Below are positions 1 to 28,210 of a stretch of 28,210 nt of DNA, piece by piece. The position numbers were made by a program, and so were the translations under genes. The DNA comes from a virus. Taxonomy: Duplodnaviria; Caudoviricetes. Every line of letters begins with the position of its first letter. Positions within the stretch are counted from its first letter, which is position 1. The stretch is from positions 1 through 28,210 of IMG/VR virus record IMGVR_UViG_3300010362_000084, one strand, 5' to 3'. The notes under the pieces were generated by a model. That model ran no database searches and was not told the DNA's origin. It saw only the letters and a list, made by a program, of their open reading frames with translations.

Positions 1-444
1 ACCGCCGTCCACCTTCGCGACTGTGGGAGGCGTAGGCTCTCCCGGCGCGGGCATCGTCGCATCTGCAATCGTCTCGAAGTAGATCGGATCGAGTCCGTTG
101 CCGGGGTCGTACGCGGCCAGCGTCCCGGTCGGGATGAAAGCTCCGTCCTCTCCTGAAAACATGAGCGTGCCCTCGGAAGGCGTTCCCTGGAACATGGGTA
201 GGCCGTACTGCTCGCCGTAGCGAACCAGAGCCTGGTAGCTCGCCGTGGAGACGAACATGTCCTCGGAGAGAAGCTGCTCCGCGAGGTAGAGGCTCTCGAA
301 CTGGCCTGCCTGGATCTCGAAGATGATGCGAATTACACCGTCCACGCCGACGTACGCATCCGGAATTCCGGCAACGAGTTGCTGGAGCATCGTCGCAAGG
401 ATCTCCTGACGAGGCTTGTAAATGTTAGCGAGTGAAACAGGCAC
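1..444 (-). CDS. Baseplate J/gp47-like wedge protein, 5' part (runs off the window)
   Basis: Not in the ORF track. GTG at 444 follows GGAGGAGG and the upstream TAA. Manual translation gives MPVSLANIYKPRQEILATMLQQLVAGIPDAYVGVDGVIRIIFE...DMFVSTASYQALVRYGEQYGLPMFQGTPSEGTLMFSGEDGAFIPTGT...YFET, which fits the typical baseplate J N-terminal pattern. It lies directly after the wedge gene. Confidence 0.85.
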   Translation of the reverse strand, partial: MPVSLANIYKPRQEILATMLQQLVAGIPDAYVGVDGVIRIIFEIQAGQFESLYLAEQLLSEDMFVSTASYQALVRYGEQYGLPMFQGTPSEGTLMFSGEDGAFIPTGTLAAYDPGNGLDPIYFETIADATMPAPGEPTPPTVAKVDGG

Positions 445-870
445 TTAGCCACCTCCTCCCGGCACGACTGGAATGGTCACGGTCGTAGAAGTTGAAAACT
501 CTCCGGTCACTGCCTGAAGCGTGGACTCGTCACCCTCCGGACTCTCCGACCACTCGACGCGCACGACAACGGCGTTTCCATCCGCTGTGTACTGCCAGGC
601 CACGTCCTCCACGAGGATGTCGTCCATGCCGCGCAGAGCATCTCGCACCCGCGCATCGATTTCAAGCTCTTCGTCGGTTGATTTTCCAAGCGTCTGGTAG
701 AGGTCGCTTCCGAACGTCCCGTCCGTGTCGTAAAACCAGGACGCTCGATGCACGAGCAGGCGAGTCGTGATCCGCTGGCTGGTGAGATCCTCACCGGAGA
801 CTCCGGCGAGATCCCTGTTCCCGGCCAGGATCAAATCGCCGTAGTCTGAAATTGCGAGATCCCAAGCCAC
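445..870 (-). CDS. Baseplate wedge / sheath-initiator protein (gp25/gp46-like)
   Basis: 141 aa and acidic, with 'DL...GDL....DL..VSG.D...Q.I..RL......W.....FGS'. Lies between the spike and baseplate J. GAGGAGG RBS. Confidence 0.75.
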   Translation of the reverse strand: MAWDLAISDYGDLILAGNRDLAGVSGEDLTSQRITTRLLVHRASWFYDTDGTFGSDLYQTLGKSTDEELEIDARVRDALRGMDDILVEDVAWQYTADGNAVVVRVEWSESPEGDESTLQAVTGEFSTSTTVTIPVVPGGGG

Positions 871-1236
871 CTAGTCCTCCTCGACTTCCAGGTAGTTTTT
901 CCCTTGCACGACCCCTAGGCAGCGAGGCAGGCGAGTCGAGCCAAGCTCGAATGCGACGAGCACAGTCTCGCCCTTTTTCGGAACCACGACTTTCGCGTCT
1001 GCCTGCCTCACGCGCAGCTTCCCCTCGTCGTCCGTGTCGTAGTAGCGCACTGTGTAATTGAAGCCCACGACCGGGATCGCCGTGTGACCCATGCCCTGGA
1101 TCCAGATGAGCCGGTTCTTTTCATCGCGCTTGATGACCTTCCCGGTCTGGAACCACTCGCCACGCGTACCGGCGACATCCCTGGCGATCTTCTCGCAGGC
1201 GACACGGATCGAATTCCATTCTTCCTCGGTGATCAT
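871..1236 (-). CDS. Short baseplate spike/assembly protein (gpV/gp45-like OB-fold)
   Basis: 121 aa with 'GKVIKRD....IWI' and 'VPKKGETVLVAFELG....PRCLG', a gpV-type N-terminal motif. Synteny fits. Confidence 0.65.
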   Translation of the reverse strand: MITEEEWNSIRVACEKIARDVAGTRGEWFQTGKVIKRDEKNRLIWIQGMGHTAIPVVGFNYTVRYYDTDDEGKLRVRQADAKVVVPKKGETVLVAFELGSTRLPRCLGVVQGKNYLEVEED

Positions 1237-1239
1237 TTT

Positions 1240-1746
1240 TCAGAATGGGTAGCGCCTCACCGCTTGTAGTGGGCCTCCCGACCAACCCTTGTACGAACGC
1301 TTGAGCGGCCCGCCTTCGCCGCCGTGCGAGATCACCTCGCCGCCGCCGACGTACAGACAGACGTGCGTGAAAAAGTTTCCGGTCAACCCCTCGAACGTGA
1401 CATCGCCCGGTTGCAACATCCCTTCCTTCACGTTCGCGCCACCGACCAGGGTGCCGTGCCGGTACAACTCGTTCGTCGTTGAAATTGCCTTGTAGTCCGA
1501 CTCGTACGGATCCGGGCACCCGGCCACCTTGTAGCAGTACCCGATGAAAAACGAGCAGTCCATGACTTCCGGAACGTACGGCGGCGGTTTCAACTGCGCG
1601 TACTGATGCGAGCCGCGCTCCTGGTGGTAATGCACGTCGGCCTCGTGCCGCAAGCACCAGATTGCAGCGCAGCAAACCTTGTACTGGCGAAATTCAGCCG
1701 CACTGAGAACGGATGGATCGACGTTTTCCATGCTGATGAGCGGCAT
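1240..1746 (-). CDS. NlpC/P60 family cell-wall peptidase
   Basis: Motifs Y.Q.R, MDCSFF (catalytic Cys), LQPGD, HVCLYVGGG.VISHG. The start is placed at ATG 1746, which makes a TAATG overlap with the upstream stop, rather than at the track's GTG 1785. Confidence 0.85.
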   Translation of the reverse strand: MPLISMENVDPSVLSAAEFRQYKVCCAAIWCLRHEADVHYHQERGSHQYAQLKPPPYVPEVMDCSFFIGYCYKVAGCPDPYESDYKAISTTNELYRHGTLVGGANVKEGMLQPGDVTFEGLTGNFFTHVCLYVGGGEVISHGGEGGPLKRSYKGWSGGPLQAVRRYPF

Positions 1747-4700
1747 TAGCCTGCGTCCTTTACCATTTGGATGTAATCGTCCCACGGGAAATTCACGCCA
1801 GGGTCGGTGTGATCTCCCCCGAACAGGGCGGTCATCTGGTCATGCCCGACAAAACCCGAGACACCCGACGTGATTTCATTGTTCGTCAGGTGCTTGACCG
1901 TGATCCCGTACTTCTTGGCCTTCTGCGCCGTGAGCCTGGCCGAGAGCCTGAGCATCGCCTGGCTGTAATTGTCGCCCCACATCGCAGCAGTCTGGAGCGC
2001 AGAGCCGCCGTGCTCGATGTGCAGCGCGTAATCATTTGTTGAAAACGATCCGGGAATGCCTGGGCCTACGGCTATGCCCGGCGTGCCGTACGCCGTGTCT
2101 GCGTCGTAGACGCTCTGCCAGATCTCTTTTTCATCGACGCAGTAGTGGGCAGAGGCAGTGCGATCGAGCGTTGAGAAATACTGGGCGCAGCCAGACGCAG
2201 CACCTGTCGGCTCGTGCGCGGCCTGGGCGACGGTCGGTGTGCCCGACTGATTGTTTTCCATCGTGTGGATCACGATCCAGAGGATGTTCGCATAGCGCCC
2301 TTTGCGATGCTGCTTGGCCTGGAGGAACTGAATATTCAGCGGGCCGGACGAGACAGGGCCAGCCGTCGGCTCGGACGGAATTACACCGAACCACTTGCTG
2401 TCCCGGAATGCTGCGATGATCTGGTCGTTGTTCGGCCAGCCCAGCGGGAAGATGTCGCTCGAACCAGTGCCGGGGCCAGGCATGTCCGTCTCACCCGCTT
2501 CTTTTTCAGCTTGCTTCACCGCGTCGTATGCAGCACGGGCGGGATCCACGAAGATCGCCGCGCTCTTGCGCACAGTTGCAGCGGCGGCCTTGCCTGCGCC
2601 GTTGTAGTGTGAAAACGCCTCCTCCATTGCGGCCATCTGGCCCGTCTGGTCGTCGGCCTGCATGTGCGTCTCGTCCAGCAACTCCTTGAAATATCTCGCG
2701 CCCTCCATGATGTTCGACTCCACGTCCCAGCGTCCGCCCGTGTACTGGTCGTGACCGAAGCTCGCAGTCACGGCGGCCTTTCCTTTCTGCGCCACCTGGA
2801 GTGAAATATCGTTCGGGTCGCCACCCATCTCCCGCAGAAATTGCGTGTTCGTCGGGATCCAGTTCTTGTTCAGACCTTGTGGGTCGTTCGAGGCACCGAC
2901 GGGACACCACTTCGCGCCTACGGCTGCGACCGTGTGCCGCCCGTTCGGGTAGTCCGGATCCACGTCGTTGATGTACGTGTTGCCGAGGTAGTCGGATGTC
3001 TTTGAAATCGCATCCGTCCAGCCGGTGAAAGCCGGTGCAGAAAGCCAGCCCCAGGCGTTGTACGGAGCGAAGCAGTTCTTGCCGAAGCTCGACTCGCCTC
3101 CTGAAATTGCAACGAGCATGCGCGGGTCGTAGCCGTTGCGCACGCCGCCTGCGACGAAATCCGTTCCGTGCCCGGCCATCGGTGAGCCTTTGCCCGTCAG
3201 GTACTTGTCGATCGCAGCGGCTGTCACGGGTGAGGCTCCGGCATCTCCCGTTCCACCCGTGTAGATGTCGTCTGCATTTTCCTTGTGCCTGCGCTGCTTG
3301 AGTTGCATCGGGCCGACACCGGCTTCCACCTTCAGCCCGTGCGTGCCGATCTGGTTGGCGAACGTAAGCTCCCACTGCGCATGCGAGGCCAGGCGCTGGC
3401 CCTTGAGGATCGCATCGGCCGCTGCCTCGCCGTACGTTTTCGGATCAGGGCCGGGGAGATCCGCATACCACTCGACCCCTTCGTGCCCGATGTTCATGCC
3501 CCGCTCACGGATGTTGTGAAATTTTGTCTCGAACTTGGCGATTGCCATCAGCCAGGCAAGGAAGATGTCGAAGTCCCAGTTGCCCTGATGAGCCGCAGCC
3601 GCACGCCAGAAGTAGTCACCCCAGTCCTCGTGACCGGGAACGAGATTTACAGTGTTCTCGTGGATGATCGCTTCTTCGTCCACGTTGTCGCTCGTGTCCG
3701 TCGCCTTGGGCTTCTTCGTGAGCTTGGGGATGCGCGGCTCCTCGGGGACACGTTGCGAAAGCGCCATGCCTTTTTCACGCAACCGGATCTCCTGGATGAA
3801 GCCGCTCGAACCAGCCTGGACTTTCACGCCCACGATGAAATAGTGGCCGTAGAAGTCGATCTCCGGGATGCGCACACGGCACATGCGATTGATGTTGATC
3901 ACGAATTTCGGATCGGAGATGACCATGCGGATTTCGACTGCCCCGACCTTGCCCTCGTAGATCTCCAGCCAGCCGCGCTTCTTCGCCATCGTGATCGTAT
4001 GCGAGTGAGAGTCCTGCACGATTTTCACAGGACGCTTGATCCAGTCACCGATCGAGCCGTCGTACACGGGCACGGTCGCCCTGAGCCTGCCGTTGTTCAC
4101 GTACGTCCAGACTCGGTAGACCCTCCCCTGCGTGGACTTGCGAATTTCAAGACCCTCGACGGGGATGTGCGCATCCGCAATCGCCGGGCGATCTGTCTTC
4201 AACGGGGTTCCGAAGTAGTACGTGGGTTGCTTCGTGTAATTCAGGCGGTTGAGAATCAGTGCGCCGTTCGGCCCGCACCAGATGTATGCCTTGTCGTTGC
4301 GCACTAGCCGGTACCAGAATTCCCAGTACGTCTCGGAGCCATCCGTCTTGATGATCTTTTTCACCTTGGAGATGCTGTTCAGGTTCGCCGAAGGGAAGCC
4401 AAGCTGCTTGGCCTGGTTCCCGATCAGGTACATCGGCTTGATCTTTTTCCATTTGTTCGGCTCGACCATCGAGTCCAACGCAAGCGAGGCGTAGTCACGG
4501 CCGGAGATCGTGTAAAGCCCGTCCTGGTCGTAGACCAGATCGTCTGAAATTCCGGTCATGATGTGCCCTGCGCCACCGGGGTCGGCCGAGAGAAGCTCGA
4601 CGCGCACCTCGTTGTCCCGGTTCATCATCGCCAGGAAGTCACCCGTCGGATCGCCAAGCTGGATCTGCCAGGAGTCGGCGTCGTTGTCCAGCGAGGAGTC

Positions 4701-4817
4701 CACGTAAAAGCCCTCGACCTGGGGAATTACACGCTTGCTGTAGCCGCGCTCCCACTTCGTCGTGATCACCGCACGCAGGCCGGGCAGGTACGTGTTTACA
4801 TCAGTGCGTGGCGGCAC
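1746..4817 (-). CDS. Baseplate hub (gpD/gp44-like) fused to lytic transglycosylase, glucosaminidase-like and Zn-amidase domains
   Basis: The first ~350 aa carry hub motifs (VDSSLDNDADSWQI, YTISGRD.ASL.LD, ETYWEF..RL). Then SLT motifs (AIAKFET, GVGPMQL, NIMEGARYF, SHYNG), a second lysozyme-like domain (AISGGESSFG, NAWG) and a C-terminal Amidase_2 domain (IVIHTME, SAHYCVD, IEH, GH, HTDPG). AAGGAGG RBS. Confidence 0.85.
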   Translation of the reverse strand: MPPRTDVNTYLPGLRAVITTKWERGYSKRVIPQVEGFYVDSSLDNDADSWQIQLGDPTGDFLAMMNRDNEVRVELLSADPGGAGHIMTGISDDLVYDQDGLYTISGRDYASLALDSMVEPNKWKKIKPMYLIGNQAKQLGFPSANLNSISKVKKIIKTDGSETYWEFWYRLVRNDKAYIWCGPNGALILNRLNYTKQPTYYFGTPLKTDRPAIADAHIPVEGLEIRKSTQGRVYRVWTYVNNGRLRATVPVYDGSIGDWIKRPVKIVQDSHSHTITMAKKRGWLEIYEGKVGAVEIRMVISDPKFVININRMCRVRIPEIDFYGHYFIVGVKVQAGSSGFIQEIRLREKGMALSQRVPEEPRIPKLTKKPKATDTSDNVDEEAIIHENTVNLVPGHEDWGDYFWRAAAAHQGNWDFDIFLAWLMAIAKFETKFHNIRERGMNIGHEGVEWYADLPGPDPKTYGEAAADAILKGQRLASHAQWELTFANQIGTHGLKVEAGVGPMQLKQRRHKENADDIYTGGTGDAGASPVTAAAIDKYLTGKGSPMAGHGTDFVAGGVRNGYDPRMLVAISGGESSFGKNCFAPYNAWGWLSAPAFTGWTDAISKTSDYLGNTYINDVDPDYPNGRHTVAAVGAKWCPVGASNDPQGLNKNWIPTNTQFLREMGGDPNDISLQVAQKGKAAVTASFGHDQYTGGRWDVESNIMEGARYFKELLDETHMQADDQTGQMAAMEEAFSHYNGAGKAAAATVRKSAAIFVDPARAAYDAVKQAEKEAGETDMPGPGTGSSDIFPLGWPNNDQIIAAFRDSKWFGVIPSEPTAGPVSSGPLNIQFLQAKQHRKGRYANILWIVIHTMENNQSGTPTVAQAAHEPTGAASGCAQYFSTLDRTASAHYCVDEKEIWQSVYDADTAYGTPGIAVGPGIPGSFSTNDYALHIEHGGSALQTAAMWGDNYSQAMLRLSARLTAQKAKKYGITVKHLTNNEITSGVSGFVGHDQMTALFGGDHTDPGVNFPWDDYIQMVKDAG

Positions 4818-4992
4818 GCTTCCTCCTTTCGCTCACACGAGGAAGCGCGTCATCGATGTACGCGTCGAAAACCTGGATCTGCTTCTCCAGCCTAGCGCGA
4901 GGATTGCGCTTCTTCCAGCGCTGAAATTCGCGAATGGCCTGCCGGTGCCTCGCCTTGACCTTTGCCTTTGCCTGCGGACTATCCATTTTCAA
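4801..4992 (-). CDS. Small basic hypothetical protein (63 aa)
   Basis: Fills the gap between the LysM gene and the hub, overlapping both, and is K/R-rich. Start is TTG 4992 or ATG 4986. Confidence 0.6.
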   Translation of the reverse strand: MKMDSPQAKAKVKARHRQAIREFQRWKKRNPRARLEKQIQVFDAYIDDALPRVSERRKRAATH

Positions 4993-5783
4993 TAGTTGAG
5001 CTTGAACCCCACGGGCAGGCGGACGTTGGCGAGCTTGTAGCTACCGCCCTTCGCGCCGCTCTTCTTCTGGAAGTCTTCGAGCTTCTGCTTGTTCAGGGAG
5101 ACAAGCTGCTTCCACTTCTCCACGTTGTTGTAAACCTCGGGCTTGGCTGCGATCGTTTTCAACGTTCGCGCTCCGGCCTTGACCGTCCAGATCCGTGTGG
5201 CCTTGCCCTTCGGCTTCGACTTCTTGGGCGTCTTGAAGAGCGGCGGCATCCCCAGCGGATCCTTGACCTTCGCACCCTCCCCGATTTTCACCAACGTGAT
5301 CGAGTAGTGGATCGAGTGTGTGCGATCGTCCTCGTCGTGGGTGAAGTCCCAGTTCTCAGGCAAGACGAACTGCTCCTTGAAAAAGAGGCCAGGTGCGTAC
5401 AGGATCAATCCACGCCCGACGTGCTTCGAGCGCAGCATCATCAGGCAATCGACCATGTTGATCTGCGAAGTCTGGCCGGGGAAGAGGCCGTTCAATGTAA
5501 TTCTGCCCTCTTCGTAGTGAACCGTGATGCCGTCGGCGTGCCAGTCTCCGATGTAATGGCGCAGACCGAGTTGTGCCTGGCCGGTGCGTGAAAATCCTTC
5601 GATCGGAGTCGGAAACACAAACATCTTGCTGCCGTTCGCCAGGTACGGGCGAGCGTGCCTGAGTTGGCCAGGGGAGTGCCTTCCCGGCGCTCTGACCGAA
5701 CCTGGGTTGATCAGGTACTTGGCAACGTCTTCGCCGTAGTACCTCTGGGCATCGGGATCGATGATGGGCGGAATCGGAGACAT
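4989..5783 (-). CDS. Tail tube initiator-like protein with C-terminal LysM-type domain
   Basis: Directly follows the tape measure gene. The C-terminus WTVKAGARTLKTIAAK..VYNN..KWKQL..LN...LPVGFKL is LysM-like. Confidence 0.75.
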   Translation of the reverse strand: MSPIPPIIDPDAQRYYGEDVAKYLINPGSVRAPGRHSPGQLRHARPYLANGSKMFVFPTPIEGFSRTGQAQLGLRHYIGDWHADGITVHYEEGRITLNGLFPGQTSQINMVDCLMMLRSKHVGRGLILYAPGLFFKEQFVLPENWDFTHDEDDRTHSIHYSITLVKIGEGAKVKDPLGMPPLFKTPKKSKPKGKATRIWTVKAGARTLKTIAAKPEVYNNVEKWKQLVSLNKQKLEDFQKKSGAKGGSYKLANVRLPVGFKLNY

Positions 5784-5786
5784 TTT

Positions 5787-7985
5787 TCAGGTTCCTCTCG
5801 CTTTCACCTTGCCACCTTGTGTCGGGGGTTTTCCATTCTGGTACTGAGTGATCGGGAGGTGAACCTTCTTCTGCTGCTTCGTGCCGTCCGGGTGCTTGAT
5901 GTTCAGGTTCAGCGTCAGTTCCTTCTTTTTTTCACCGCCGCCGCCGAAGAGAATGTCAGAGTCGTTTGAGCGACCACCACCCGACCAGAACAAGTCCTGG
6001 GCGCTCTTCGCAGTCTGAGCGCGGAGAAGATCGTCCGTGCGCTTTTTCATCTGGGCTTTCTTCCGCGCCTGCACGGCCTCGTTGAAAGATGTCCTGTTCC
6101 TCTTGTTGTCGTCGTCGTCACCGCCGCCGAAGATGCCGTGCCAGAGCTTCTTGGCCACGCCGATACCTGAATTTTCACCGCCGAAATTCGTGATGTCCTT
6201 GTAGAGAAAACCCTTCCTCAACTGATCCTTCGTCCAGAAGTCCGACTCGAAGACACCCGGCTGGTCGGGATGCGCCATGCCCTGGTAGATGTCCGCTGCA
6301 ATTCCAACACCGAGAGCCGTGCCGCCAACCCTGAAGCCTGCCATGCCGAGACGCTTCAAGCGGCCCGGTGGTCGTTTTCCCTTTGTCATCGGATCGCCGG
6401 GAAGATCGCCTGTCGGCCTGGGCTTCGGGCCGTACGGAGTCGGGATCCTGTTTCCACCCGGATTGAAAATACTGGTCATGTCACCGACGATGATCACGAA
6501 CATCGGGTTGGTCAGCGTTCCAAGCTCGCGATTTCCAGACGCCAGGCTCTGCGCGGCAGCGAGTGCAGGAACACCTCTACCGCCCAGACCTTTCAGGAGT
6601 CTCCTGCCGTAAATGGCGAGGCCAGCCGCGCCCAGCGCAGCGACACCGACCGTCGTGGCCACCGGGTGATCGACTCCGGCACCGGCAACGTGAGCAACCG
6701 TGCGTGCGATCGGGTTGATTACAGGAGCGAGTGCATGGCGCTCGACAGTCGTGCGCAGTGAGTCGAGTGCGACCGCAGCCGCTTCGAGCGGGTTTTCCTT
6801 TTCGTAGCGCTTCCAACCCTCCTTGAGGCTGTTCGTGGAATCCACGACGCCGTTCTGAATATCCGCCATCTCCTGCAAGTCCTGCTGCATCTGCCCGGCC
6901 TTGGCCTGTGTGGAAAGCGCAAGCGCCATGCGCAGAGCGTGGATCCTTCTGAAAACGGTGCCGAGGAAGACTGCGCCCGGCCCCTGGATCCCCATCTGCG
7001 TCATGACCTGTTCGGTCGGCATGTCCTCCATCAACGCCATCGACTCTTCGTCCAGGCTCATGACCTTGCCCAGATCGCCGCTCACACCAAGAACGCCCGC
7101 CCTCTTGAAAATGCGGTTGAGCGTGTCGGTCAGAGGCAGATTCGCAGACGGTGTAATTCCAACCGACGCAAGCGCTGCCTTGCCCGCCTTCGTCTGCTGG
7201 CTCGGGAACGCGAGCGTCTGAAGGAAGAATTGCAGAGCACGTCCTGCCTGCGCCGGAGGAATACCACCGCGCAGACCGGAGAGCATGAGCGCGAACATGT
7301 CTGCCGGTGTGCCTCTCGCCTGCGCCGTCATCGCGGCCAACTGACCCATCTGCTGCGCCATCTGCTGACCGGCTGCGACTCCACCCGGAGCTTCCTTCGT
7401 CAGGGCGAAGAAGAGGTTTGCGACTTTTTCAATGTTCGTCGTGTTCGCCTTGACGCCGAACGCAGTGTTGAGCGTTGTAAATGCGCGGGTCGCGTCCTCG
7501 GCTCCAAGCTGTGAGAGCTTGGCGGCGCGGGTGATCGTCGTGACCATCGGTGTAATTTCATCCTTGGGCACGTCCTGGATCGTGGAGAGCAGGTTGATCA
7601 CCGCGTCGTTGTACTGGTTTACAGGAGTGAGCGAGTCGATTGCGCCCTTGGCGGTCTGATCCATCAGGTCTTGGAGATCCTGACCGACGATCGGTCTGCC
7701 GCCGGTTTGCGTGCCAATCGCTGAGATCAGACCCATCTGATTCTGAATTTCACGAAGCTGCGTGACGAACCGGCCCATACCGAACACGACCTGACCGGCG
7801 ATGGCGTAACGCATCGTCGTCCCGAACGCCCGCCAGAGAGCACCCAGTTTTTCAGACTGCCGTGTTGCGTCGGAGATGCTGCGCGTCCACTGGTTCGTGC
7901 CGTACGCAAGCTGCCCCATCGCAGCCTGAACCCCGGTACCGCGTACCCGGAATTCAGTGACGATCTGCTGGATGATTGCGCTCAT
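5787..7985 (-). CDS. Tail tape measure protein
   Basis: 732 aa, rich in Ala/Gly/Gln/Met and helical-looking, with hydrophobic segments in the C-terminal half. Lies downstream of the chaperones. Confidence 0.9.
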   Translation of the reverse strand: MSAIIQQIVTEFRVRGTGVQAAMGQLAYGTNQWTRSISDATRQSEKLGALWRAFGTTMRYAIAGQVVFGMGRFVTQLREIQNQMGLISAIGTQTGGRPIVGQDLQDLMDQTAKGAIDSLTPVNQYNDAVINLLSTIQDVPKDEITPMVTTITRAAKLSQLGAEDATRAFTTLNTAFGVKANTTNIEKVANLFFALTKEAPGGVAAGQQMAQQMGQLAAMTAQARGTPADMFALMLSGLRGGIPPAQAGRALQFFLQTLAFPSQQTKAGKAALASVGITPSANLPLTDTLNRIFKRAGVLGVSGDLGKVMSLDEESMALMEDMPTEQVMTQMGIQGPGAVFLGTVFRRIHALRMALALSTQAKAGQMQQDLQEMADIQNGVVDSTNSLKEGWKRYEKENPLEAAAVALDSLRTTVERHALAPVINPIARTVAHVAGAGVDHPVATTVGVAALGAAGLAIYGRRLLKGLGGRGVPALAAAQSLASGNRELGTLTNPMFVIIVGDMTSIFNPGGNRIPTPYGPKPRPTGDLPGDPMTKGKRPPGRLKRLGMAGFRVGGTALGVGIAADIYQGMAHPDQPGVFESDFWTKDQLRKGFLYKDITNFGGENSGIGVAKKLWHGIFGGGDDDDNKRNRTSFNEAVQARKKAQMKKRTDDLLRAQTAKSAQDLFWSGGGRSNDSDILFGGGGEKKKELTLNLNIKHPDGTKQQKKVHLPITQYQNGKPPTQGGKVKARGT

Positions 7986-9076: not shown

Positions 9077-9079
9077 GGC

Positions 9080-9499: not shown

Positions 9500-9516
9500 T
9501 TTCAGTTACCTCCTTC

Positions 9517-10665: not shown

Positions 10666-10682
10666 CTATCCTCCTCTCGTTT

Positions 10683-13664: not shown

Positions 13665-13670
13665 GCCCCC

Positions 13671-14324: not shown

Positions 14325-14326
14325 TT

Positions 14327-17300: not shown

Positions 17301-20300
17301 GTCACCGTGACGGCATTCGTGCGTTTGAACATTTTCAGAAGCGCCTGCGTCGGAGTCAGCGTCACAGTGGCAGCGAGTGAAAACCCTCGCGCCTTCTGAG
17401 ACGACATCGCAGCAGTGAACGTCGCCGTCACGGCATTCGTCTTGAAAAGCTGTTTGAACGATGTGAGCGTGGCCGTGAACGTTGAAGTCACGGCCAAGGG
17501 CTTGGTGATCTTCCTCGACACTGCGGGCAGGATCGTCGTCGTCGCAGCCAGTGTCCTGAAGACGAACGCCTGGCGCGTCTGGGTCGGCGTGAAAACAGCC
17601 GTGAGCGCGACTCCACGGTTGTTCTTCGCCGCCGCACCGGCTGTGGGCACAAGCGTCGTTGACGCTGCTTGGAGGAAGCTCGTTTTCAGAGCCTTGTTCA
17701 TTGCCGGAGTGACCGTCGTCGTTGCATCGAACTGCCGGTTGTACGACGCTGGCGGATTGAGAAAACCGAAATCTTCGATCACGAAGCCGTTGTCGGCAGA
17801 GATGGCGGCATACCCGGCGGCCGTGATGTTCGTGTCGGTGCGAGACAAGACCTGAGTCCACGTACTGCTGCCCGACGCCTTGCGGTAGACCGTGATCGTG
17901 CTGCCCTTTATTTTCGCACCGATTGAATCGCCGTTCGCCCAAGCCTGGCTCGTGTCCGTCGCGCCAATTGACAGGAAGGCAGTGCCAGTAGCCCTACGCA
18001 CGAGAATCTGATCATTCCCGGCTTGTGTATTCAGTTGCACACCGTAGTACGTGGCGTCGTTGAACGTCTTCCTGAACTGAATTTCAAATTTGAGAAACGT
18101 CGTAGTCGGAATCGTCGCGAGCGTTGCAAAGACCTCGAAGTCCGCCGTCGTGCCTTGCGGCGCAACCCACCACATCTGGTTCCGGATGTAATTCAGCGTG
18201 GCAGACCAGATGCTCTGAAGCTGGTTGCTCACGACTTGAAGACCGCCGCGTCCGTATGAAAATCGGTTGTTGATCCCCGTCGTGCTTGGAATCCCGCCCC
18301 AGGCCGAGTTCCAGAAGGCGATTTCATCGATCAGGCCGGGGAACACGACACTGCTCGACCAGTGAGCGCCCACGTACATCGGATTTCCCAGGGCTATGGT
18401 CGCAGGGCCGGTCAAGGTTCCCTGTGCGACCTGGACAGCATTGCGGTAGAGCGTCATCAAGCCGCTCGATGCAACGTATGTCAGAGCCAGGTGCGTCCAC
18501 TGGTTGAGCGGAAGATCAGTTGTGTCTGAAATCGTGCTCCACGTCGTCGTGGCAGCAACGTAGAAGCCAGCCCAGACACGTTGGGCCGAGCCTGATTTCA
18601 CTCCGTACCCGAGCACGAACGGCTTGTTCGTCGCCGCCCCGCCGTGACCGAGGATCATCGCATCGTCGGCACAGGCGGCAGACGGGTTGACCCAGACTTC
18701 GATTCCCCAGTCCCCAGAGCCATTCGTGTAGCTCTGGTTGTGCGGAATTTCAACACGCCCACCGGAGTTGAAGCCGACACTGCCGTCAACCGGGTCGTTG
18801 ACGATTGCAGACGCCTGGCCCTGGATGCAGTTGACGTACGTGGCGTTCGACAAGCCGGTGACGCCGAATCCCCTCGCAGTCGTGCCCGACGGCTCTCCGA
18901 GCGAATAAAGGAAAACCTGCGAAGAGACGGCCTCCTGGAAGAAATTCCCACGAAAGCGCGAGCGTGCAGCAGTGGCAGTGACAGCCAGGTTCGAGATCGA
19001 GACATCAGAGAACCTGAAATTCGAGCCTTTGCTCTCCGAGTTGCCTGCGCCGATGAAGAACCAGTAGCTGTTGCCCCAGTTGGGCGTAGCGTTCGTCGTC
19101 GCGCCAGACACATCCTCGCCGTCGAGGTAGATCTTGATGTTCGAGCCGGTCTTGGAGACGATGACATGATGCGGGTTGAGATCTGTAATTCCGACCGTCG
19201 AAGTACACATCATCGCCCCGAACGAGAGCAGAAACTCGATCTTGCCAGCCGTGTTCAGACGAGCAGAAGGAGCACCCGGCCCTTTTGAAAACAGATACTG
19301 ATAGTCCGTGTCAGTCGTAGAGAGCCGCTGGAGCCACATCTCGAATGAAAACGTGTCTCCGAGGCTGTCAATCGCCGTGCCTGTCCCGGTGTAAAACGCA
19401 CTTGCCCCGTCCGTGTTGGGGCAGGCGACCGAGTAGCCCGGCCACGGTGCCCTCGGATTACAGCCCGGCTGCCTGTAGAGCACAGATCCGGTCGGAGACA
19501 GAGGGATTTTCGTTCCCGAGTGCCAGTCGTAGAGTCCTCCCGCTGCGTCTATGCAGCGCCAGTACGCCTGCGGTGACACTTGCACACCAGCCATGTCGGC
19601 ATACGTCGTCTCTTTCCAGTTGCTGCCGGGCGGGTTCTGATTCGCTCTGTTGAAATCATCGACAACTGCGGCGGCCGGGAACTGAGCCACCTTCTGGGCG
19701 AGCATGTCCGGCGTGAGCGTCAGCGTTGCTGCAAGTGAAATCGGCGTGTTCGCAAACGTAGGAGGGGCACCCCAGTTGTCGAACATCCACGAACTGTCGT
19801 TGCAGTAGAGCGCAGGCGTACCGGCATTCGGAAGCGGAGATGCGTCGTTGCGAATGCAGACCAGTGACCAGCTTCCTGACAACGGCTTGTGCCACACTTG
19901 AATTTGCCCGCCGACGACTCGCGCACCGATTGAATCGCTCGATCCGATTGCCCGCGAGGTATCAGAGACGCCCAACTGCGTATCGACCCCGTTTACACGC
20001 CGGTACACGTCGATAGTCTCGTTCCCGGATGCCGAAAGGAAATTGACGACGTAACCAGTGTCGGCCGTACGCATACGCCGCAAATGAATCTGGCACGACC
20101 TCCCTGCGGTACCCAAGGAGCCAATCGTGATGTACGCCTCCTGATCGAGCGAATCGGTGGATCCCCATGAAATTCCGTCCCAGGAAGCGGCGACCATCGT
20201 CTTGAGCGTGTTGATCGAAGTCTGAAAACCGTCGCCGCCCGTCCTGATCTGGTTGAACCACGGCGCAGTGAGTGGCCCGTCTGCACGCTGAAAATTATCT

Positions 20301-20944
20301 CGAACGGCTTCGTTCGGGAACGTCGGTGTTTGATCGGTGAAATCGGGAGTGACAAGCCGAGAGCCACCCGCTGACTGTCCCGTGCGAATGAGCACGTCGC
20401 CGTTGTTCGAGCCAGACGCTGTTGTAATTTCCCAGGCAACGGCGAAGAACAGGTATTCGCCGCTCAGCGTGATCGTCGTGCCCGGTGACCACGTAAGCGT
20501 CGTCGTCTGGTCGGCCGTCGTTGAAAGTGCAGCGGCTGTCGTCGTGCCGACGACTATGGCAGATGTCAGTTTTGTCGCGCTCGATCCGTCTGCATTCGCG
20601 CTCCTGTAAACTTCCATCCGCATCCGCCCACGCTGCGACGAAGCGGTGCCTGCACGCACGGCAAATGTGAAAACCCAGTCGGTCGCGGCGAACGTCCCGA
20701 ACAAAGCCGCAGGAATCTTGAACGCATTCGACATCGGTGAAAACAGAGACGGGCGTGAGCTAGCGCTTACGAACGTGCCGGATGCCTGTTTCGTACCGGC
20801 TCTGAAATCGGCTGCGTTGGCTGCTGCAATCTTGGCGACCGTCCAGCCGTCCGTCCTGCTCGCCGCCGCCTGGTCTACGCCGTCTACGAGCGCACCACAA
20901 ACTCCGTCGTTGGTCGTGGCGACCATGAACGTCTCAACCGCCAT
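14327..20944 (-). CDS. Giant fibre/adhesin: LamG (ConA-like) domains, Thr/Ala-rich repeats and collagen
   Basis: 2205 aa. LamG motifs (FSFEMWL..HHVIV; [28 protein letters not shown]; [19 protein letters not shown]), ~20-aa T/A repeats, and GPP/GEP collagen near the C-terminus. Confidence 0.85.
14980..15140 (-). repeat. Collagen-like Gly-X-Y coding repeat
   Basis: Translates as [52 protein letters not shown]. Confidence 0.9.
16870..17750 (-). repeat. Degenerate ~19-22-aa Thr/Ala/Val stalk repeats; a second block lies at about 15300-16140
   Basis: Recurrent [21 protein letters not shown] and AVTATFTA units, with recurring DNA such as cgtcggcgtgaaaac. Confidence 0.75.
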
Positions 20945-22472: not shown

Positions 22473-23660
22473 TCACGACGTTGGCAGCGTGACTTCCTCG
22501 ACGGAGTTCGGGATGTCGAGATAGAGGCCGCGCCGAGCACGCGCAACCTGCTGGCCCTCGATCAGCCGCGAGATGTCCGCCGGGCCGATGTCGATCCGGA
22601 GGTCGTGGTGGACAAGCTCCTTCATGCGCAGGCCCGGTGCGATGAAATAGCACTTGCCCGCCGTGACGCCGGGGTAGACGTACGACTTGATGCCGTTCGT
22701 GACCGTCGCGCCGTTGTAGTAGATGATGCCCGTGACCGGCACCCGGCGAAGCGGATTTCCGTTTGCGTCGATGACGGGCGTGAGCAGCGCGTCCTCGATC
22801 TGAAAACGGTCGGCCTCGTTCGCGAGGATCCACGTCGGCACCCGCTGAGGCAGAGCCGTGGCGGCGTGCTTGTACGCGTTCTGAAAAGTCACGAGCGTAT
22901 TCGCCTGGAGCGATCCGTTGCCGGTTGCTCCCGCCGTCTTGTTCGCGGCGGCGTACGTGTAGGCGATGATCGGGGACAGGTGGAGGTGGTTGATCAGGTA
23001 GTTGTACGCCCGGCCGAACGCCCGACTGTTCATCGAGATTTCATAGGAGCGGTCGTACTCGATCATGTCCTCCGTCCACTCGAACCCGGCCGCGTACGTC
23101 GAGATCGGCACGAACGAGGGTACTCCTGCCTTGGCCAGCGAACCGAAGATGATTTCACCGGCCTCGAACTTCTCCAGGAAGACCACGTTCGCGTCGAAAA
23201 CGACATCCCCGCCGATCTGCACGGAGCCACCGGGGAACGGCCCGTTTACACGCTCGTACAGCGGAGTGTAAAGAACCGGTACCTCGGCCAGCCCCTGGTC
23301 GATGTCGATGCGAACCTTGTCGAGCAGATCCATCGCCCCGTCGGACGTGGTGATCATCTCGCCCACGGACTGGAGCAAGTCGATGGAAACCATGTCCTCG
23401 AAGAACTGCGGCACGAGCCGCCCCTCCATCTCGGAAGCCGAGACGAGTTGGACGGACGCGATTTCACCGACGAGCCTGCCCGGCTGCCAGCGCTGGTGCG
23501 TGAGATCGGTGAAATTCCCGTCCGTCATCGGCTGACCCGCCGTCAGCGGGCCGAAGCGTCCGTCGTGCCCGATGAACATGCGCCCGCTCTTGTCGTGGCG
23601 GACGATCTTGTCCATCGTCAGCGCGTCGGGAATCAGGACACCCTGTGCTGTTTTCGTCAC
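22473..23660 (-). CDS. Major capsid protein (HK97-type fold inferred)
   Basis: 395 aa, strong AAGGAGG RBS, highly biased codons, 'YAAGFEWTEDMIEYD' motif. Follows the scaffold and decoration genes. Confidence 0.9.
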   Translation of the reverse strand: MTKTAQGVLIPDALTMDKIVRHDKSGRMFIGHDGRFGPLTAGQPMTDGNFTDLTHQRWQPGRLVGEIASVQLVSASEMEGRLVPQFFEDMVSIDLLQSVGEMITTSDGAMDLLDKVRIDIDQGLAEVPVLYTPLYERVNGPFPGGSVQIGGDVVFDANVVFLEKFEAGEIIFGSLAKAGVPSFVPISTYAAGFEWTEDMIEYDRSYEISMNSRAFGRAYNYLINHLHLSPIIAYTYAAANKTAGATGNGSLQANTLVTFQNAYKHAATALPQRVPTWILANEADRFQIEDALLTPVIDANGNPLRRVPVTGIIYYNGATVTNGIKSYVYPGVTAGKCYFIAPGLRMKELVHHDLRIDIGPADISRLIEGQQVARARRGLYLDIPNSVEEVTLPTS

Positions 23661-23675
23661 TGAATTTCCTCCTTC

Positions 23676-24047: not shown

Positions 24048-24098
24048 CTCCCAACTCCTTCCTTGCTCATCAAAGATGCATTTTCAGGTCTGGTCGTG

Positions 24099-24710
24099 CT
24101 AGGCGGCGTCGTCCGCCTGGAGCGCCGAGATGATCTCGGCCTTCGTGTTGGAAGACGTGACATCGAGGCCACGGCTCGTCGCCTCGGCCAGAAGCTCGTC
24201 CTTCGTCTGGACGCTGTAATCGACCGCCTCGCCGCCCTCTTCCGTCGCACCCTGGAGATCCGTCTCCAGGTCGGTGCGGCCGGGAGCGCCGGGGAAGTTC
24301 GTGCCGATTTCATCGGGCGAGAGATCGGCCTGGTAGCCGACGCCGTAGTTTTCATCGATCCTGGCCGGGTGGTCGTCCGGCAGGGCCGACGGGTTGAACG
24401 GGTGCTGTTCGAGCGGCAACAGCCGCCCGGCAGCGGTGATGGGATCCGGCGAGCCGTAGCCCGGAGGGCCGACGATCGCGGGTGTCATGTCCATGCTCTG
24501 CTCCTCCTCGCTCATGCCGCTGACCTTGGAAGCGGACTGAGCCGTCTCGACCAGGCCGCCCGCTTCGTCCAGGGCGTCGAAGTCGATGTGCTCGCCCGCT
24601 GCAATTGCCTCGTCCTGCGGCTGAAGCTCGAAGTCCTCCTCGACCAGGCCCGCCTCGGCCCGGCTGGTGGTCTTCTTCTTCGGCGTTGCTTCGGTTTCGC
24701 TCATTTTCAC
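24099..24710 (-). CDS. Very acidic protein with C-terminal SAP/HeH (Rho-N-like) motif
   Basis: D/E-rich, apparently disordered body. C-terminus YSVQTKDELLAEATSRGLDVTSSNTKAEIISAL. Confidence 0.75.
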   Translation of the reverse strand: MKMSETEATPKKKTTSRAEAGLVEEDFELQPQDEAIAAGEHIDFDALDEAGGLVETAQSASKVSGMSEEEQSMDMTPAIVGPPGYGSPDPITAAGRLLPLEQHPFNPSALPDDHPARIDENYGVGYQADLSPDEIGTNFPGAPGRTDLETDLQGATEEGGEAVDYSVQTKDELLAEATSRGLDVTSSNTKAEIISALQADDAA

Positions 24711-25868
24711 CTACCTTGCCGAGCGGACGCGAATCCGCGAGGTTGTCGTGCCGACTTTCAACTCGCGCTGTCCGTTGCGCGAGCGCTCCGTCGTCGGCGG
24801 CGAAGCGGGTGTCTCCTCCATCTCGGACACCTGAGCCTTGATCGAGTCGTCCCCGTCGATGAAAGTGTTGACCATCTCGGAGACGGTCTTCTCGTCGTCC
24901 GTTGAATTTCCGGTCGCCTTGAAATCGCGGAGGTCGTCCATCTCGCTGACGATCAGCCGCTTGACGAGCGAACGCGTGCCCACGTCCTTGAACTTTTTCA
25001 CGAGGACGGACTCCAGGATCGAGTCGCGGACGGTCTTGCCTGCGTCCTTGATCGACCCCAGCGCCTTGGCGAGCACGGTCACGTCGTCCACGTCGTCGGC
25101 CAGGCCGAGGATGCGACGAAATTCCGGGATCAGGGCGAGCGTCGGCTGCAACGCGGCTGCCTCACCCTCCATCTCCCCGACCTTCGTCTCCAGCGGCGTT
25201 TTCACGGCCGTCTCGATCTCCAGCACGAGGTTCGGGTTGTGCGCCCGAAGCTCGTTCTGGGTCAGAGCACCGATCTCTTCCGGCTTCAAGTCATTGCCTC
25301 CTTCCATTTCACTCGTGAGCGCGACAAGTCCGGCGTTCATCCCGGCAGAGCGCGGCCTGGCCAGGTCGATGGACTCGATGCGGAAGCTCTTGATTTTCAC
25401 TCCGTCCTCGAAGCGCTCCTGCGCCACCTTGCCGCGCCAGGAGACGTTCTTGACCAGACCGCGCGTCAGGTAGTCCCGGCCCTTCGTTCCGGGCAGGACG
25501 TACGCCTTGACGGCCAGCCTGGCTTTTTCACCCAGCGTCGTGAGCTTCGCGCCCAGCCACTGAAGCTGGATTTCAGGGAAGACGTACGGGTCGTCCTCGT
25601 CCTTGATGTGGCCCATGTAGCCGACGATCGGCTCCCCGCTGGCCGCTGTGTTCATCTCCGCTGCCACGTTCGTGAAAAGCTCCGGCCCCCAGAAGCGCTT
25701 GCTGCGACTCCAGCCGGACTCGATCACGAACGTGGCGAAGCGGGGATCGTCGTCTCCGGCGGTGACGCGGGAGAGGATTTCAGGTGCGATGGCGACGACA
25801 GCGTTCGAGTCGGTCGTCATCTCGACGGCCGTCTCGAATACCTCAGTGATCACGTCGTCCATTTTCAC
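24711..25868 (-). CDS. Prohead protease-scaffold fusion
   Basis: N-terminal beta domain (GWSRSKRFW, YMGH, VSWRG, SIDLAR...AG) like phage maturation proteases, then an acidic helical C-terminal half. Canonical position. Confidence 0.75.
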   Translation of the reverse strand: MKMDDVITEVFETAVEMTTDSNAVVAIAPEILSRVTAGDDDPRFATFVIESGWSRSKRFWGPELFTNVAAEMNTAASGEPIVGYMGHIKDEDDPYVFPEIQLQWLGAKLTTLGEKARLAVKAYVLPGTKGRDYLTRGLVKNVSWRGKVAQERFEDGVKIKSFRIESIDLARPRSAGMNAGLVALTSEMEGGNDLKPEEIGALTQNELRAHNPNLVLEIETAVKTPLETKVGEMEGEAAALQPTLALIPEFRRILGLADDVDDVTVLAKALGSIKDAGKTVRDSILESVLVKKFKDVGTRSLVKRLIVSEMDDLRDFKATGNSTDDEKTVSEMVNTFIDGDDSIKAQVSEMEETPASPPTTERSRNGQRELKVGTTTSRIRVRSAR

Positions 25869-26242
25869 CGCCTCTTCAGTGTCTTCCCGCCGGTTTTCAT
25901 CTGGTTCGTCTGCGTGATCACCTTCTGGTGCCCGGCGCTGAGCTTGCCCGGCCCCGGCGGCGGCGGCGTGCCGTCCAGGACACGGACGCTGCCCGGCCCC
26001 TTAGACGGATCGTAGCGCGGGTTCGCGTTGTTCGTGAACTGCGACTCGACCGGACTGAAATTGTTGCTCGTCGTGCTGCCGAAGACGAACGGCACGAACA
26101 GCCGACGCACGGACGCCTTCGTTTTCACCGTCCGCCGCGTGAGTTGGCTCTCGTCGTGCCAGGAGCCGCTCTTCGGGTTGGCGGTAACGCCCTTCGGCGT
26201 CTTGGGGCTGTTGACGCTCTTCGCTCTCAGGATTCTTGCCAC
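25865..26242 (-). CDS. Small basic hypothetical protein (125 aa)
   Basis: Rich in K/R/P/S/T. GGGAGG RBS. Its stop overlaps the next start (GTGA). Confidence 0.75.
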   Translation of the reverse strand: MARILRAKSVNSPKTPKGVTANPKSGSWHDESQLTRRTVKTKASVRRLFVPFVFGSTTSNNFSPVESQFTNNANPRYDPSKGPGSVRVLDGTPPPPGPGKLSAGHQKVITQTNQMKTGGKTLKRR

Positions 26243-26245
26243 GCT

Positions 26246-26461
26246 CTACCTCCCTTCGACTACTTGCGGATCTTGCCCGCCGGACTGTGAACCACCCGGT
26301 AGACGCTCTTCTTGAAAATCGTCTTGCCACTGCGCTTGTTCTTGTTGTCCGGCATTTCCAGGATCCTTGCCACTTCCGCTCCTCCTCGCTGCTCTCGCCT
26401 TCTTGCCTCTTTCGTATTTTGCTTTCTTGGATGCCTGGGGGATCTTCGGCCTCTTGCTCAC
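26246..26461 (-). CDS. Small protein with basic N-terminus (71 aa)
   Basis: MSKRPKIPQASKKAKYERGKKARAARR. GTGA coupling upstream and a 3-nt gap downstream. Confidence 0.65.
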   Translation of the reverse strand: MSKRPKIPQASKKAKYERGKKARAARRSGSGKDPGNAGQQEQAQWQDDFQEERLPGGSQSGGQDPQVVEGR

Positions 26462-26568
26462 CCGCGCAGGAACCTTCCCCAGCGCATTTTCACAGAAGGG
26501 GTCGCATACGAGGACGGGAACGTAAATTTCACTCGACCGCGACTGTCCTTGACCCGTACGCGGAACAT
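26458..26568 (-). CDS. 36-aa Arg-rich peptide (below the track cutoff)
   Basis: Manual translation MFRVRVKDSRGRVKFTFPSSYATPSVKMRWGRFLRG*. AGGA precedes the ATG and the stop overlaps the next GTG. Confidence 0.55.
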   Translation of the reverse strand: MFRVRVKDSRGRVKFTFPSSYATPSVKMRWGRFLRG

Positions 26569-26594
26569 GAGTCCTGAGATGTCCTGAAATTTCC

Positions 26595-26852
26595 TCATCT
26601 GCGCCTCCGTCTCGTCGTTCTGCGCCTAGAAGAGCGCTTCCTGCTGCGGGTGCGGCTTGATTTTCTGGAACGGCCTCGGTTCATTTTCCGAAGCGTAAGC
26701 GCGAGTCTTGCTCTGCGTCCGGTCTTGCCGCCCTTCTTGGCCATAGCCCGCAACTTCTTCTGCGGGATCTTCTGGCCCTTTTTCACTCCAGCCGTCTTGC
26801 GCAACGCTCCCTTGTTCTTGATCGCGCCTTTGATCCATCTCTTGCGTGCCAC
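26595..26852 (-). CDS. Protamine/histone-tail-like highly basic protein (85 aa)
   Basis: MARKRWIKGAIKNKGALRKTAGVKKGQKIP...RSRKRSSRRRTTRRRRR contains no acidic residue. Confidence 0.8.
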   Translation of the reverse strand: MARKRWIKGAIKNKGALRKTAGVKKGQKIPQKKLRAMAKKGGKTGRRARLALTLRKMNRGRSRKSSRTRSRKRSSRRRTTRRRRR

Positions 26853-26858
26853 TGTATT

Positions 26859-26984
26859 TCACTTCCTCTTCCGCCTCATCCTGGCGGCTGCCAGCTTCGT
26901 CGGGTTCTTACCGCCGACCTTCTTCTTCCTCACGCGGATCGACTTCCTGCGGCCGATCCGGGGAGAGTGGCTTCTTGTTTTCAC
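26859..26984 (-). CDS. 41-aa Lys/Arg-rich peptide (below the track cutoff)
   Basis: Manual translation MKTRSHSPRIGRRKSIRVRKKKVGGKNPTKLAAARMRRKRK*. The GTG overlaps the portal TGA and the ORF fills the gap almost exactly. Confidence 0.7.
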   Translation of the reverse strand: MKTRSHSPRIGRRKSIRVRKKKVGGKNPTKLAAARMRRKRK

Positions 26985-28210
26985 TGCCTGGCCCCTGCCG
27001 GTACCGGCCGGTTGCGAATCTCGGGAGGCGGCAGACCGGTTTGCACCTGAACCTCGGGGAGCATCGCCTGGCGCTCCTCCTGATCCTTCTTCGCGTCCTT
27101 CGACTCCTGGTCGATCGATTTCATCGCGGGCAGGAACATCTTGACCATGCGCATGTACGTCTCGTCCGAGATTTCACCGGACTGCAACGCAACCTCCAGG
27201 CCCATGACCAACTGCTGGAACGCCTGCATATGGACGACGAGATCGTCCGGCCTGACCATCTCCCAGGAGAGCTTGGCCCGGACGGGAATCATGCCCGACA
27301 TCACGAGCGCCATTTTCAGAAGGTTCTGGATCGGCCGCTGGTAGACCTTGCGCTTGCGCTCGATCTTTTTCAGGAACGGAACGGTCTGCGCGTTGCGGTC
27401 GGAGTTCGCCGTCCCGCCGGACACGCGCATGAACGCCCACTCCGGCGTCTGCGCCGCGATGCAGATGCAGTCGATCAGGAATTCGAGCAGGTTGTTCGTG
27501 TCACCGAGCACGGAGCGAGCTTCGAGGAATTCCATGTCGTCGCCCGTTTGCAGGAACAGGATTTCACGGCCGCGCCAGGAGATCTCCGCGTGCGGCTTGA
27601 TCTCTCCCGTCTGCGGATCGACCGCCTCGGGGAAGTTGTTCTTGATGAACGGAGCCACATCCTGCAATTTCAGAACGACCTTCGGCGTCGAGTGGTACTT
27701 GTGCGCCTGGAGTCCCTGCGTGAGCACGTCGTGAAAAGCCCGCATGAACGGCAGCACCGACTCGTACTCGCTCTGGCCGGACTGGAGTGCCGAGTCCCAC
27801 TCGTTGTAAATCTCTTCGAGCGGGACGAAGCCGTAGCGGTTCGTCGCACCAAGCTCGTCCAGCCACACGTTCTCGGTCTGATCATAGAACCTGTAATCCT
27901 GCCGCGTGATGATCTCCAGGATGTCGTGCTCCTCGATCGTCGGATCCTGGCCGGTCGCCGGATTGCCGGGCGATTTCACGATTGCCATCTGATGACGGAC
28001 GATTGCCCGCTCGATCACACGCTTGTTGCGGGCGTTGCGCTCGATTGTCACCGTCTCGGGCGGGATAATTTCAAGAGCGCAGTGCTCAGCCTCGTCAATC
28101 GTCATCAGCGGATCGAGGATGTCGGGGCGCTGGATGCGGACGATCGTCTTCGAGTCGCGCAGGGAGTCTCTCAGCATCGCCTGAATTTCCTCGACCCAGT
28201 AGTCCTGGAT
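26981..28210 (-). CDS. Portal protein (5' truncated by the window)
   Basis: The frame is open to the window edge. 'N.YGFVP...IYN......GQSEYE.V' and 'I..AAQTPE..F' are SPP1 gp6-like portal motifs. First gene of the head module. Confidence 0.9.
   Translation of the reverse strand: MQDYWVEEIQAMLRDSLRDSKTIVRIQRPDILDPLMTIDEAEHCALEIIPPETVTIERNARNKRVIERAIVRHQMAIVKSPGNPATGQDPTIEEHDILEIITRQDYRFYDQTENVWLDELGATNRYGFVPLEEIYNEWDSALQSGQSEYESVLPFMRAFHDVLTQGLQAHKYHSTPKVVLKLQDVAPFIKNNFPEAVDPQTGEIKPHAEISWRGREILFLQTGDDMEFLEARSVLGDTNNLLEFLIDCICIAAQTPEWAFMRVSGGTANSDRNAQTVPFLKKIERKRKVYQRPIQNLLKMALVMSGMIPVRAKLSWEMVRPDDLVVHMQAFQQLVMGLEVALQSGEISDETYMRMVKMFLPAMKSIDQESKDAKKDQEERQAMLPEVQVQTGLPPPEIRNRPVPAGARQ

Follow-up and report, generated by a model that had tools for sequence, protein, structure and literature searches.

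The hexamer TGWAAW recurs at high density and with even spacing on both strands of a 28,210-nucleotide stretch of a tailed virus genome (Caudoviricetes; IMG/VR record IMGVR_UViG_3300010362_000084, positions 1 to 28,210, hereafter the window). The evidence supports selection at the DNA level on this array, which is real, strongly selected, and shared across a family of soil phages and which apparently has not been described; we found no description of the motif, in agreement with the original prediction, or of its candidate reader in the open-access literature. The explanation we favor, with a probability of roughly 55%, is that the sites form an evenly spaced lattice on which a phage-encoded, histone H1-like protein docks.

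The array comprises 229 sites, the first at position 154 and the last at 28068-28073, with a mean of one per 122 bp. Although every gene in the window lies on the − strand, both orientations are used: 127 sites are on the + strand, antisense to the genes (154..27897), and 102 are on the − strand, in the sense direction (332..28073). The words are TGAAAA (101 copies), TGAAAT (81), TGTAAT (25), and TGTAAA (22); position 7 is a pyrimidine in 179 of the 229 sites, and the flanks beyond it carry little information. An earlier count by hand of about 95 sites in the first 12 kb was nearly exact (94), and the roughly 10-fold enrichment proposed with it agrees with the 21.1, 23.3, and 26.4 sites expected under Markov models of orders 0, 1, and 2. 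Order 3 gives 69.7 and order 4 gives 199.8, but the order-4 null is uninformative because it is built from enriched 5-mers and so absorbs the motif; the 5-mer TGAAA alone occurs 198 times, versus 89.7 under order 3. Single substitutions in the word lower the counts about 5- to 50-fold.

Coding constraint does not account for the array. Synonymous shuffling within genes yielded 33.8 sites (maximum of 52 in 300 runs), versus 212 observed coding sites, of which 88 are sense and 124 antisense, with all six frame and strand settings occupied. The word could be formed synonymously at 519 positions and is present at 213 of them. The original prediction had also held that the sites draw on otherwise rare codons, which is so for TTT (43 of 76 in sites), TCA (38 of 82), and ATT (48 of 106) and only weakly so for ACA (16 of 86).

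Spacing is far more even than chance allows. Gaps between sites have a mean of 122 bp, a median of 107.5 bp, and a maximum of 415 bp, only 4 of 228 exceeding 300 bp, and their coefficient of variation (CV) is 0.56, versus 0.99 ± 0.065 in 10,000 random placements (minimum, 0.81). Fifty-six other frequent hexamers had a median CV of 0.98 (minimum, 0.79). Random draws from the 519 synonymously possible positions gave a CV of 0.96 (minimum of 0.76 in 5,000 draws); this sampling replaced a dicodon-preserving shuffle, which keeps in-frame sites by construction. The 25 largest gaps are enriched in near-variants of the word (GGAAAA, 9 versus 2.4; TGAAAG, 6 versus 2.0), and no 10.5-bp helical phasing was detected among the window sites.

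Comparison with related genomes showed that density is maintained while individual positions turn over. The closest relative, G001, whose capsid protein is 92% identical to that of the window, shares 63 of 112 aligned sites, versus 24 expected. More distant orthologues have matching numbers of sites (57 and 55, 70 and 60, 52 and 57) and share only 8 to 14 positions (14 of 57 with G003, 12 of 70 with G002, and 8 of 52 with G006). Among 11 close relatives, which are not independent of one another, third-position A or T was conserved in 503 of 856 cases (59%) inside sites and in 1,333 of 3,557 (37%) outside them. Across 54 loci of the TGWAAW class (15 loci of a branch with a drifted word were left out), density fell only from 9.3 to 6.5 sites per kb between 45 to 50% and 59 to 64% GC, while the chance expectation fell threefold, from 2.2 to 0.73. 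The claim that selection acts on the DNA and not on the proteins thus held up under shuffling, at silent positions, and in orthologue counts.

Sites also exclude one another at short range on both strands. Pooled over eight genomes, the ratio of observed to expected site pairs was 0.30 on the same strand and 0.26 on opposite strands at 6 to 15 bp, 0.51 and 0.52 at 25 to 35 bp, 0.84 and 0.71 at 45 to 55 bp, and about 1 in both settings beyond 65 bp. Avoidance within about 55 bp is therefore blind to orientation; the word is likely read on double-stranded DNA, and the length scale suggests the reach of a protein. We consider it very probable that some protein binds the array.

A primase or Chi site is expected to space itself within one strand and to ignore the other. 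Taken singly, the strands of the window are near random (CVs of 0.90 and 0.91), and exclusion is as strong across strands as within them, which argues against such signals. It is accordingly most improbable, in our judgment, that the word is strand specific, serving as a primase site or as a Chi-like stop for a phage PD-(D/E)XK exonuclease and RecA, although primase, DnaB, RecA, and the PD-(D/E)XK nuclease are core genes of the clade and phages can over-represent Chi (PMC3784561). Chi is likewise a short self-marking motif enriched in phage DNA, but as described in that source it is an octamer of the host RecBCD system, enriched in the host, present at about 0.2 per kb, and concentrated near the origin and cos; TGWAAW, at 8 per kb, is 40-fold denser, uniform, and nearly absent from the inferred hosts. 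The one-strand or one-orientation function of Chi, KOPS, and primase sites is not seen in an array of 127 + and 102 − sites.

Uptake sequences of bacteria occur at about 1 per kb, far below the phage array, and we know of no uptake step in phages. They nonetheless offer a model for an array without any binding function, one that arises through molecular drive (biased recombination) or through a bias in mutation or codon use, since their copies build up in either orientation and a role for drive has been suggested (PMC1939737). According to the same source, the sequences of Pasteurellaceae and Neisseriaceae resemble TGWAAW in being non-palindromic, without orientation bias, often inside open reading frames (ORFs), and reportedly evenly spaced, but they are longer and are read by cellular competence machinery. 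Survival of the array under synonymous shuffling, conservation at silent positions, density held against GC content, and the 55-bp exclusion make an origin without binding very improbable.

The array is near uniform along whole genomes of relatives, with about 500 to 630 sites per 64- to 74-kb genome, and it marks a clade. In a redundant set of loci of at least 3.8 kb, a TG-N-N-A-W word was enriched at least 2.5-fold in 79 of 81 ingroup loci (capsid identity of at least 49%) and in 2 of 18 outgroup loci, both marginal. The two misses, L169 and L171, are low-GC members (41% and 48% GC) with no enriched TG-N-N-A-W word; L169 has AATTAC at 15 copies versus 2.9, and loss, drift, or chance supply of the word could each be the reason. 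The word itself drifts by lineage: TGAAAW and TGTAAW in the window and G001; TGAAATT and TGTAATT in G002 to G006; TGACAA plus TGAAAA in G007, G008, and G010; and TGCCAA plus TGACAA in G009 and G013. TGCCAA loci form a single supported branch in a quick capsid tree. The TG-N-N-A-W frame is retained across capsid identities down to 49%, with the fifth A invariant, and the word is usable as a binning signature for the clade. Its AT richness is incidental, because one branch uses a word of 50% GC.

The host is inferred to belong to Thermoleophilia, from the sequence of one Rpf-like gene of G001: 15 of its 20 best matches carry the names Gaiellaceae, Gaiellales, Solirubrobacteraceae, or Thermoleophilia, with unplaced Actinomycetota making up the remaining 5. 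Assigning a host from the flanks of G001 was rejected, since both junctions fall in mid-ORF and look chimeric; these ends (L035:1-500 and L038:6550-8116) turn in mid-ORF into high-GC bacterial sequence, probably through chimeric assembly. In 25 Thermoleophilia-type loci we found 33 sites in 442,653 bp (0.075 per kb, versus 8.1 per kb in the phage, about 100-fold fewer), a low count mostly expected from their composition of 65 to 75% GC and an indirect comparison, the host being only inferred.

That comparison bears on the idea that a host protein reads the word, a nucleoid or defense protein being recruited or titrated and the drift reflecting host shifts. Retention of the TG-N-N-A-W frame over such divergence is compatible with it, and in PANGU the phage sensors are nucleoid-associated proteins, although the PANGU sensor is described in the same source as binding without sequence specificity (bioRxiv 10.64898/2026.04.06.716658). 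The scarcity of sites in the putative host loci, the mapping of the drift to one phage branch, and the position of promoter clusters at a phage gene (described below) lead us to regard a host reader as quite unlikely. Among the three functions originally proposed, an array for a genome-coating protein fits best, given the exclusion over about 55 bp regardless of orientation, the uniform density along genomes, and the core H1-like candidate described below; a decoy for a host protein is compatible with the data, but the TGCCAA drift tracks the phage tree, and a modification mark lacks an enzyme.

BREX methylation falls on the fifth base of its site. A DNA-modifying enzyme whose modified sites mark self DNA would suit a non-palindromic 6-mer like the BREX sites (PMC11341690) and one with an invariant fifth A. 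No methyltransferase family was found when sets of 142, 25, and 53 non-structural proteins, which took in only part of the small or boundary-crossing ORFs, were scanned against Pfam, nor was a methyltransferase present among the core clusters, and we give this possibility very little credence.

The search for DNA-binding genes, also suggested by the original prediction, led outside the window to the candidate behind the favored lattice explanation: a protein of 248 to 313 amino acids with 60 to 80 Lys and Arg residues, encoded in all eight near-complete relatives (in G001 at L035:8334-9080). Linker histone H1 and chlamydial Hc2-type proteins consist of a small folded domain flanked by basic tails rich in Lys and Ala, and to our knowledge they are not sequence specific. 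The candidate is similar in layout, with a Rho_N-like start (in two of five scanned), two Lys/Ala-rich tails, and a conserved middle domain of about 100 residues; it differs in that this central domain has no match in Pfam, PDB, or BFVD. PF07382 (HC2) is annotated on 5 of 120 listed homologues, none of which carries a functional name. The middle domain forms a closed family (206 clusters at 50% identity, 197 with E values below 1e-10), and in 250 proteins Arg83 is conserved at 98% and Gln94 and His95 at 100%. Homologues that depart from Arg83 have Gln (P0142, P0212), Ser (P0153, P0245), or Lys (P0172) at this position. The domain spans about 105 residues and is encoded at L035:8586-8903 (+) in G001 and at L300:16051-16350 (−) in G009. 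An AlphaFold model predicts three helices (pLDDT, 85.5). Comparison with PDB sequences gave no match below an E value of 0.49, matches in the Atlas reached only 0.75 to 0.76 and were all unnamed viral clusters, and the three-helix domain is apparently undescribed. That this protein is the binder we rate as slightly better than an even bet.

The region upstream of the candidate gene offers an indirect link between protein and word. A sigma70-like promoter precedes the gene in eight of eight genomes, a pattern found ahead of only 2 to 6 other genes per genome. When strict sites were counted in the 110 bp upstream of each gene, the candidate ranked first of 106 genes in G008 (5 sites) and first of 100 in G009 (4), and it tied for first in G010 (4) and in G007 (2, a tie with 23 others). 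Excluding the copy in the −35 box, G008 and G009 retain three TGMCAA each, as in 0.8% and 0.3% of AT-matched windows, respectively; G002, G003, and G006 have three AATT cores each (0.2 to 1.9% of AT-matched windows). Near-consensus promoter counts are high in G003, G008, G009, and G010 and not in G001, G002, G006, and G007. The promoter carries the word of its lineage, or the core of that word, in five of the eight genomes. A terminator-like hairpin follows the gene in G002, G003, and G006 (e.g., L046:11550-11600), with TGAAAT in the loop.

In one genome a change in the protein coincides with a change in the word. In G016, Gln replaces the near-invariant Arg83, and the top hexamer is ATAAAT (85 copies versus 29), beside GTAAAT, GTAATT, and GAAATT; in none of the other 80 sequences does ATAAAT rank higher than 69th. 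The motif of G016 was inspected after its Gln83 had been seen. Arg commonly reads G and Gln reads A in protein-DNA recognition, and the pairing of Gln83 with ATAAAT fits this code.

The central domain is probably reused at the N terminus of a MoxR-type AAA protein, as judged from a profile alignment (hhalign probability of 62%, E value of 7e-5). The AAA protein with this domain-like segment occurs in G001 to G003, G006, and G015, and its gene forms a pair with a DUF7192 gene; the pair lies on the opposite strand, adjoining a long non-coding region (L036:1533-3905 and L043:2971-5532, −). The AAA/DUF7192 pair was rejected as a universal reader, as it was not found in G007 to G010. At its place, G009 and G010 hold large opposite-strand ORFs (L300:6386-9532, +, 1,048 amino acids; L303:6713-8779, +, 688 amino acids) for which no confident Pfam match was obtained.

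Other phage proteins could read the lattice: a MerR-like winged helix-turn-helix (HTH) protein, an HU-like protein, the HTH of the small terminase, or a DNA organizer inside the virion. The MerR-like protein and the small terminase are present in all eight near-complete relatives and the HU-like gene in most, the highest site density is reached in non-coding DNA ahead of the terminase genes (12 per 500 bp in G001 and 15 in G003), and G010 has four sites ahead of the small terminase gene. HU proteins, however, are mostly sequence nonspecific, the terminase HTH varies greatly between genomes with TGAAAT in common, and small basic ORFs of the head region are patchy in the clade and for that reason are not favored readers. 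The MerR-like protein was rejected because its recognition segment does not follow motif class, being consensus in G016. We regard this group of readers, taken together, as unlikely. The densest clusters mentioned above, at L036:4500-5000 and L043:8100-8600, with tandem TGAAAATGAAAA copies in G001, possibly mark a genome end or packaging region.

For the H1-like protein, we envisage the following. It would dock on the word in duplex DNA through its central three-helix domain, its lysine-rich tails would cover the flanking DNA, and one bound protein would serve roughly 50 to 60 bp on each side. A second site within that distance would add little and so would decay, and long gaps would be filled by synonymous change. 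The resulting coat could compact or shield phage DNA in the cell, and it may form only after entry. Host DNA, at about 0.08 sites per kb versus 8 per kb in the phage, could not seed the coat, which would thereby allow the phage to distinguish its own DNA from that of the host. With all genomic sites occupied, the protein would turn to repressing the promoter of its own gene. This purpose for the coat is tentative, and we give it somewhat less than an even chance.

Several observations weigh against the H1-like protein and its lattice. The candidate gene lies outside the window, the window being a fragment; the central domain has no significant fold match (best Z score of 4.9, the SANT, LysR, and sigma4 rows falling at 4.0 to 4.9, below significance). 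Upstream strict sites number only 0 to 1 in G001, G002, G003, and G006, the −35 box itself accounts for one of the promoter copies in the TGACAA genomes, and the AATT core count is a post hoc measure; neither the closest relative, G001, nor G007 has a promoter cluster, and that in G010 is marginal. G016 is a single case with a weak array (2- to 3-fold; CV of about 1), and its ATAAAT keeps away from the other G016 sites only to the extent typical of AT-only words. Protein subfamily tracks phylogeny, as does motif class, so that the agreement between the two is not independent evidence. Nearby replacement of lost sites did not exceed the null, the sites of G010 are not under-dispersed (CV, 1.07), and the host inference rests on one gene. 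Restriction-site avoidance is also strong in the window, where 32 of 64 six-base palindromes are absent and GGWCC is found 0 times versus 51 per word; with half of the 6-bp palindromes missing, any coat would not replace such avoidance. Relatives also lack GAGCCC, CAGCTC, and others.

The array differs from described systems, as had been claimed for HIP1, Chi/KOPS, and stoperators. Mycobacteriophage stoperators are about 13 bp long, number a few dozen, are oriented with transcription and mostly intergenic, and are bound by a phage-encoded protein. They resemble TGWAAW as dispersed asymmetric sites in an actinobacterial phage (the reader here being only a candidate), but the present sites are 6 to 7 bp, occur in hundreds of copies in both orientations, and are mostly coding, at 88 sense and 124 antisense. 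HIP1 is likewise a hyper-abundant dispersed motif selected at the DNA level within and between ORFs, with a proposed nucleoid role, and is described as a palindromic octamer of cellular chromosomes with a periodicity of 10 to 90 kb (PMC5861425). TGWAAW shares the selected over-representation within and between ORFs and is not a palindromic word of the GCGATCGC type; it is a phage hexamer at 8 per kb that shows short-range exclusion, drifts by lineage, and has a candidate reader encoded by the phage. The p6 protein of phi29 is encoded by the phage and organizes phage DNA in a nucleoprotein complex; it is reported to recognize a bendability pattern near the ends and no specific sequence (PMC10899789). 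Here a base-specific word tiles the whole genome; it is sensitive to substitution, unphased at 10.5 bp, and drifts to TGCCAA, none of which suits recognition by bendability.

Spanning the head-tail half of the genome (about 70 kb) of an uncultured, contractile-tailed phage, the window is a fragment in which gene order runs from portal to capsid, sheath, tape measure, and baseplate. The portal protein gene (26981..28210, −; PHROG 64, E value of 7e-17) is truncated by the window end, carries sites, and served as the query for finding relatives. Between it and the head protease lies a cluster of several tiny, strongly basic ORFs (25865..26984, −), possibly nonspecific core proteins, one of which (26595-26852) has a protamine-like Arg/Ser tail. 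An acidic head-module protein (24099..24710, −), core in 15 of 15 sequences, matches PHROG 3281/38661 at residues 152 to 201; this C-terminal segment we take to be SAP/HeH-like, and the protein is a weak candidate for reading the motif. The major capsid protein (22473..23660, −; PF25209), whose identity of at least 49% defines the motif-bearing clade, is extended at its N terminus by 88 residues that fail to align with Bacillus and Clostridium phage homologues. The contractile-tail module (1..20944, −) encodes a large LamG/collagen protein, sheath, tape measure, hub-amidase, NlpC/P60, and baseplate proteins, and its site density equals that of the remainder of the window.

Contigs from four runs in three studies, one run possibly being the source of the window sequence, cover 28 to 30 of 30 bins in the tested 19.9 kb (8300-28200), so this sequence is not an assembly artifact; no RNA data set was listed as a holder. 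By capsid, the nearest cultured phages are only those of Bacillus, Clostridium, and Weizmannia (32 to 41% identity), a GTDB prophage search with the capsid protein found none, and further viral scans yielded one additional genome. The relatives have genomes of 62 to 74 kb, several complete, encoding DnaB, primase, DnaE, RecA, and an SF2 helicase; the DnaE/RecA region is absent from the G001 assembly, and the SF2 helicase of G003 carries an intein (L046:7629-9842). Free-standing LAGLIDADG and HNH genes occur in several relatives (L293:2367-2795; L035:15533-16000), and NADAR-domain genes, which we presume may counter DNA ADP-ribosylation, occur in G006 (L288:12493-12981) and G008 (L297:3437-3994). 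A tRNA-Leu (aag) in G001 (L035:10106-10181) was the only ARAGORN call in five genomes.

Known phage strategies include the marking of self DNA through base modification and the loss of sites that the host targets. We tentatively postulate, at a little under even odds, a form of sequence-addressed chromatin in which a linker-histone-like protein with a new type of DNA-reading domain reads about 550 self words, coats phage and not host DNA, titrates itself, and coevolves with its word (TGWAAW, TGACAA, TGCCAA, and RTAAAT), some members aiming an AAA+ remodeler at the sites. If this is true, a dense self word acquired throughout the genes, together with a coevolving reader, would add a further route to self/non-self discrimination and genome organization. 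The clade would then offer a natural series in which to follow a binding protein and its hundreds of sites as they change specificity together, as well as a phage case of a HIP1-like hyper-abundant motif for which a candidate reader can be named.

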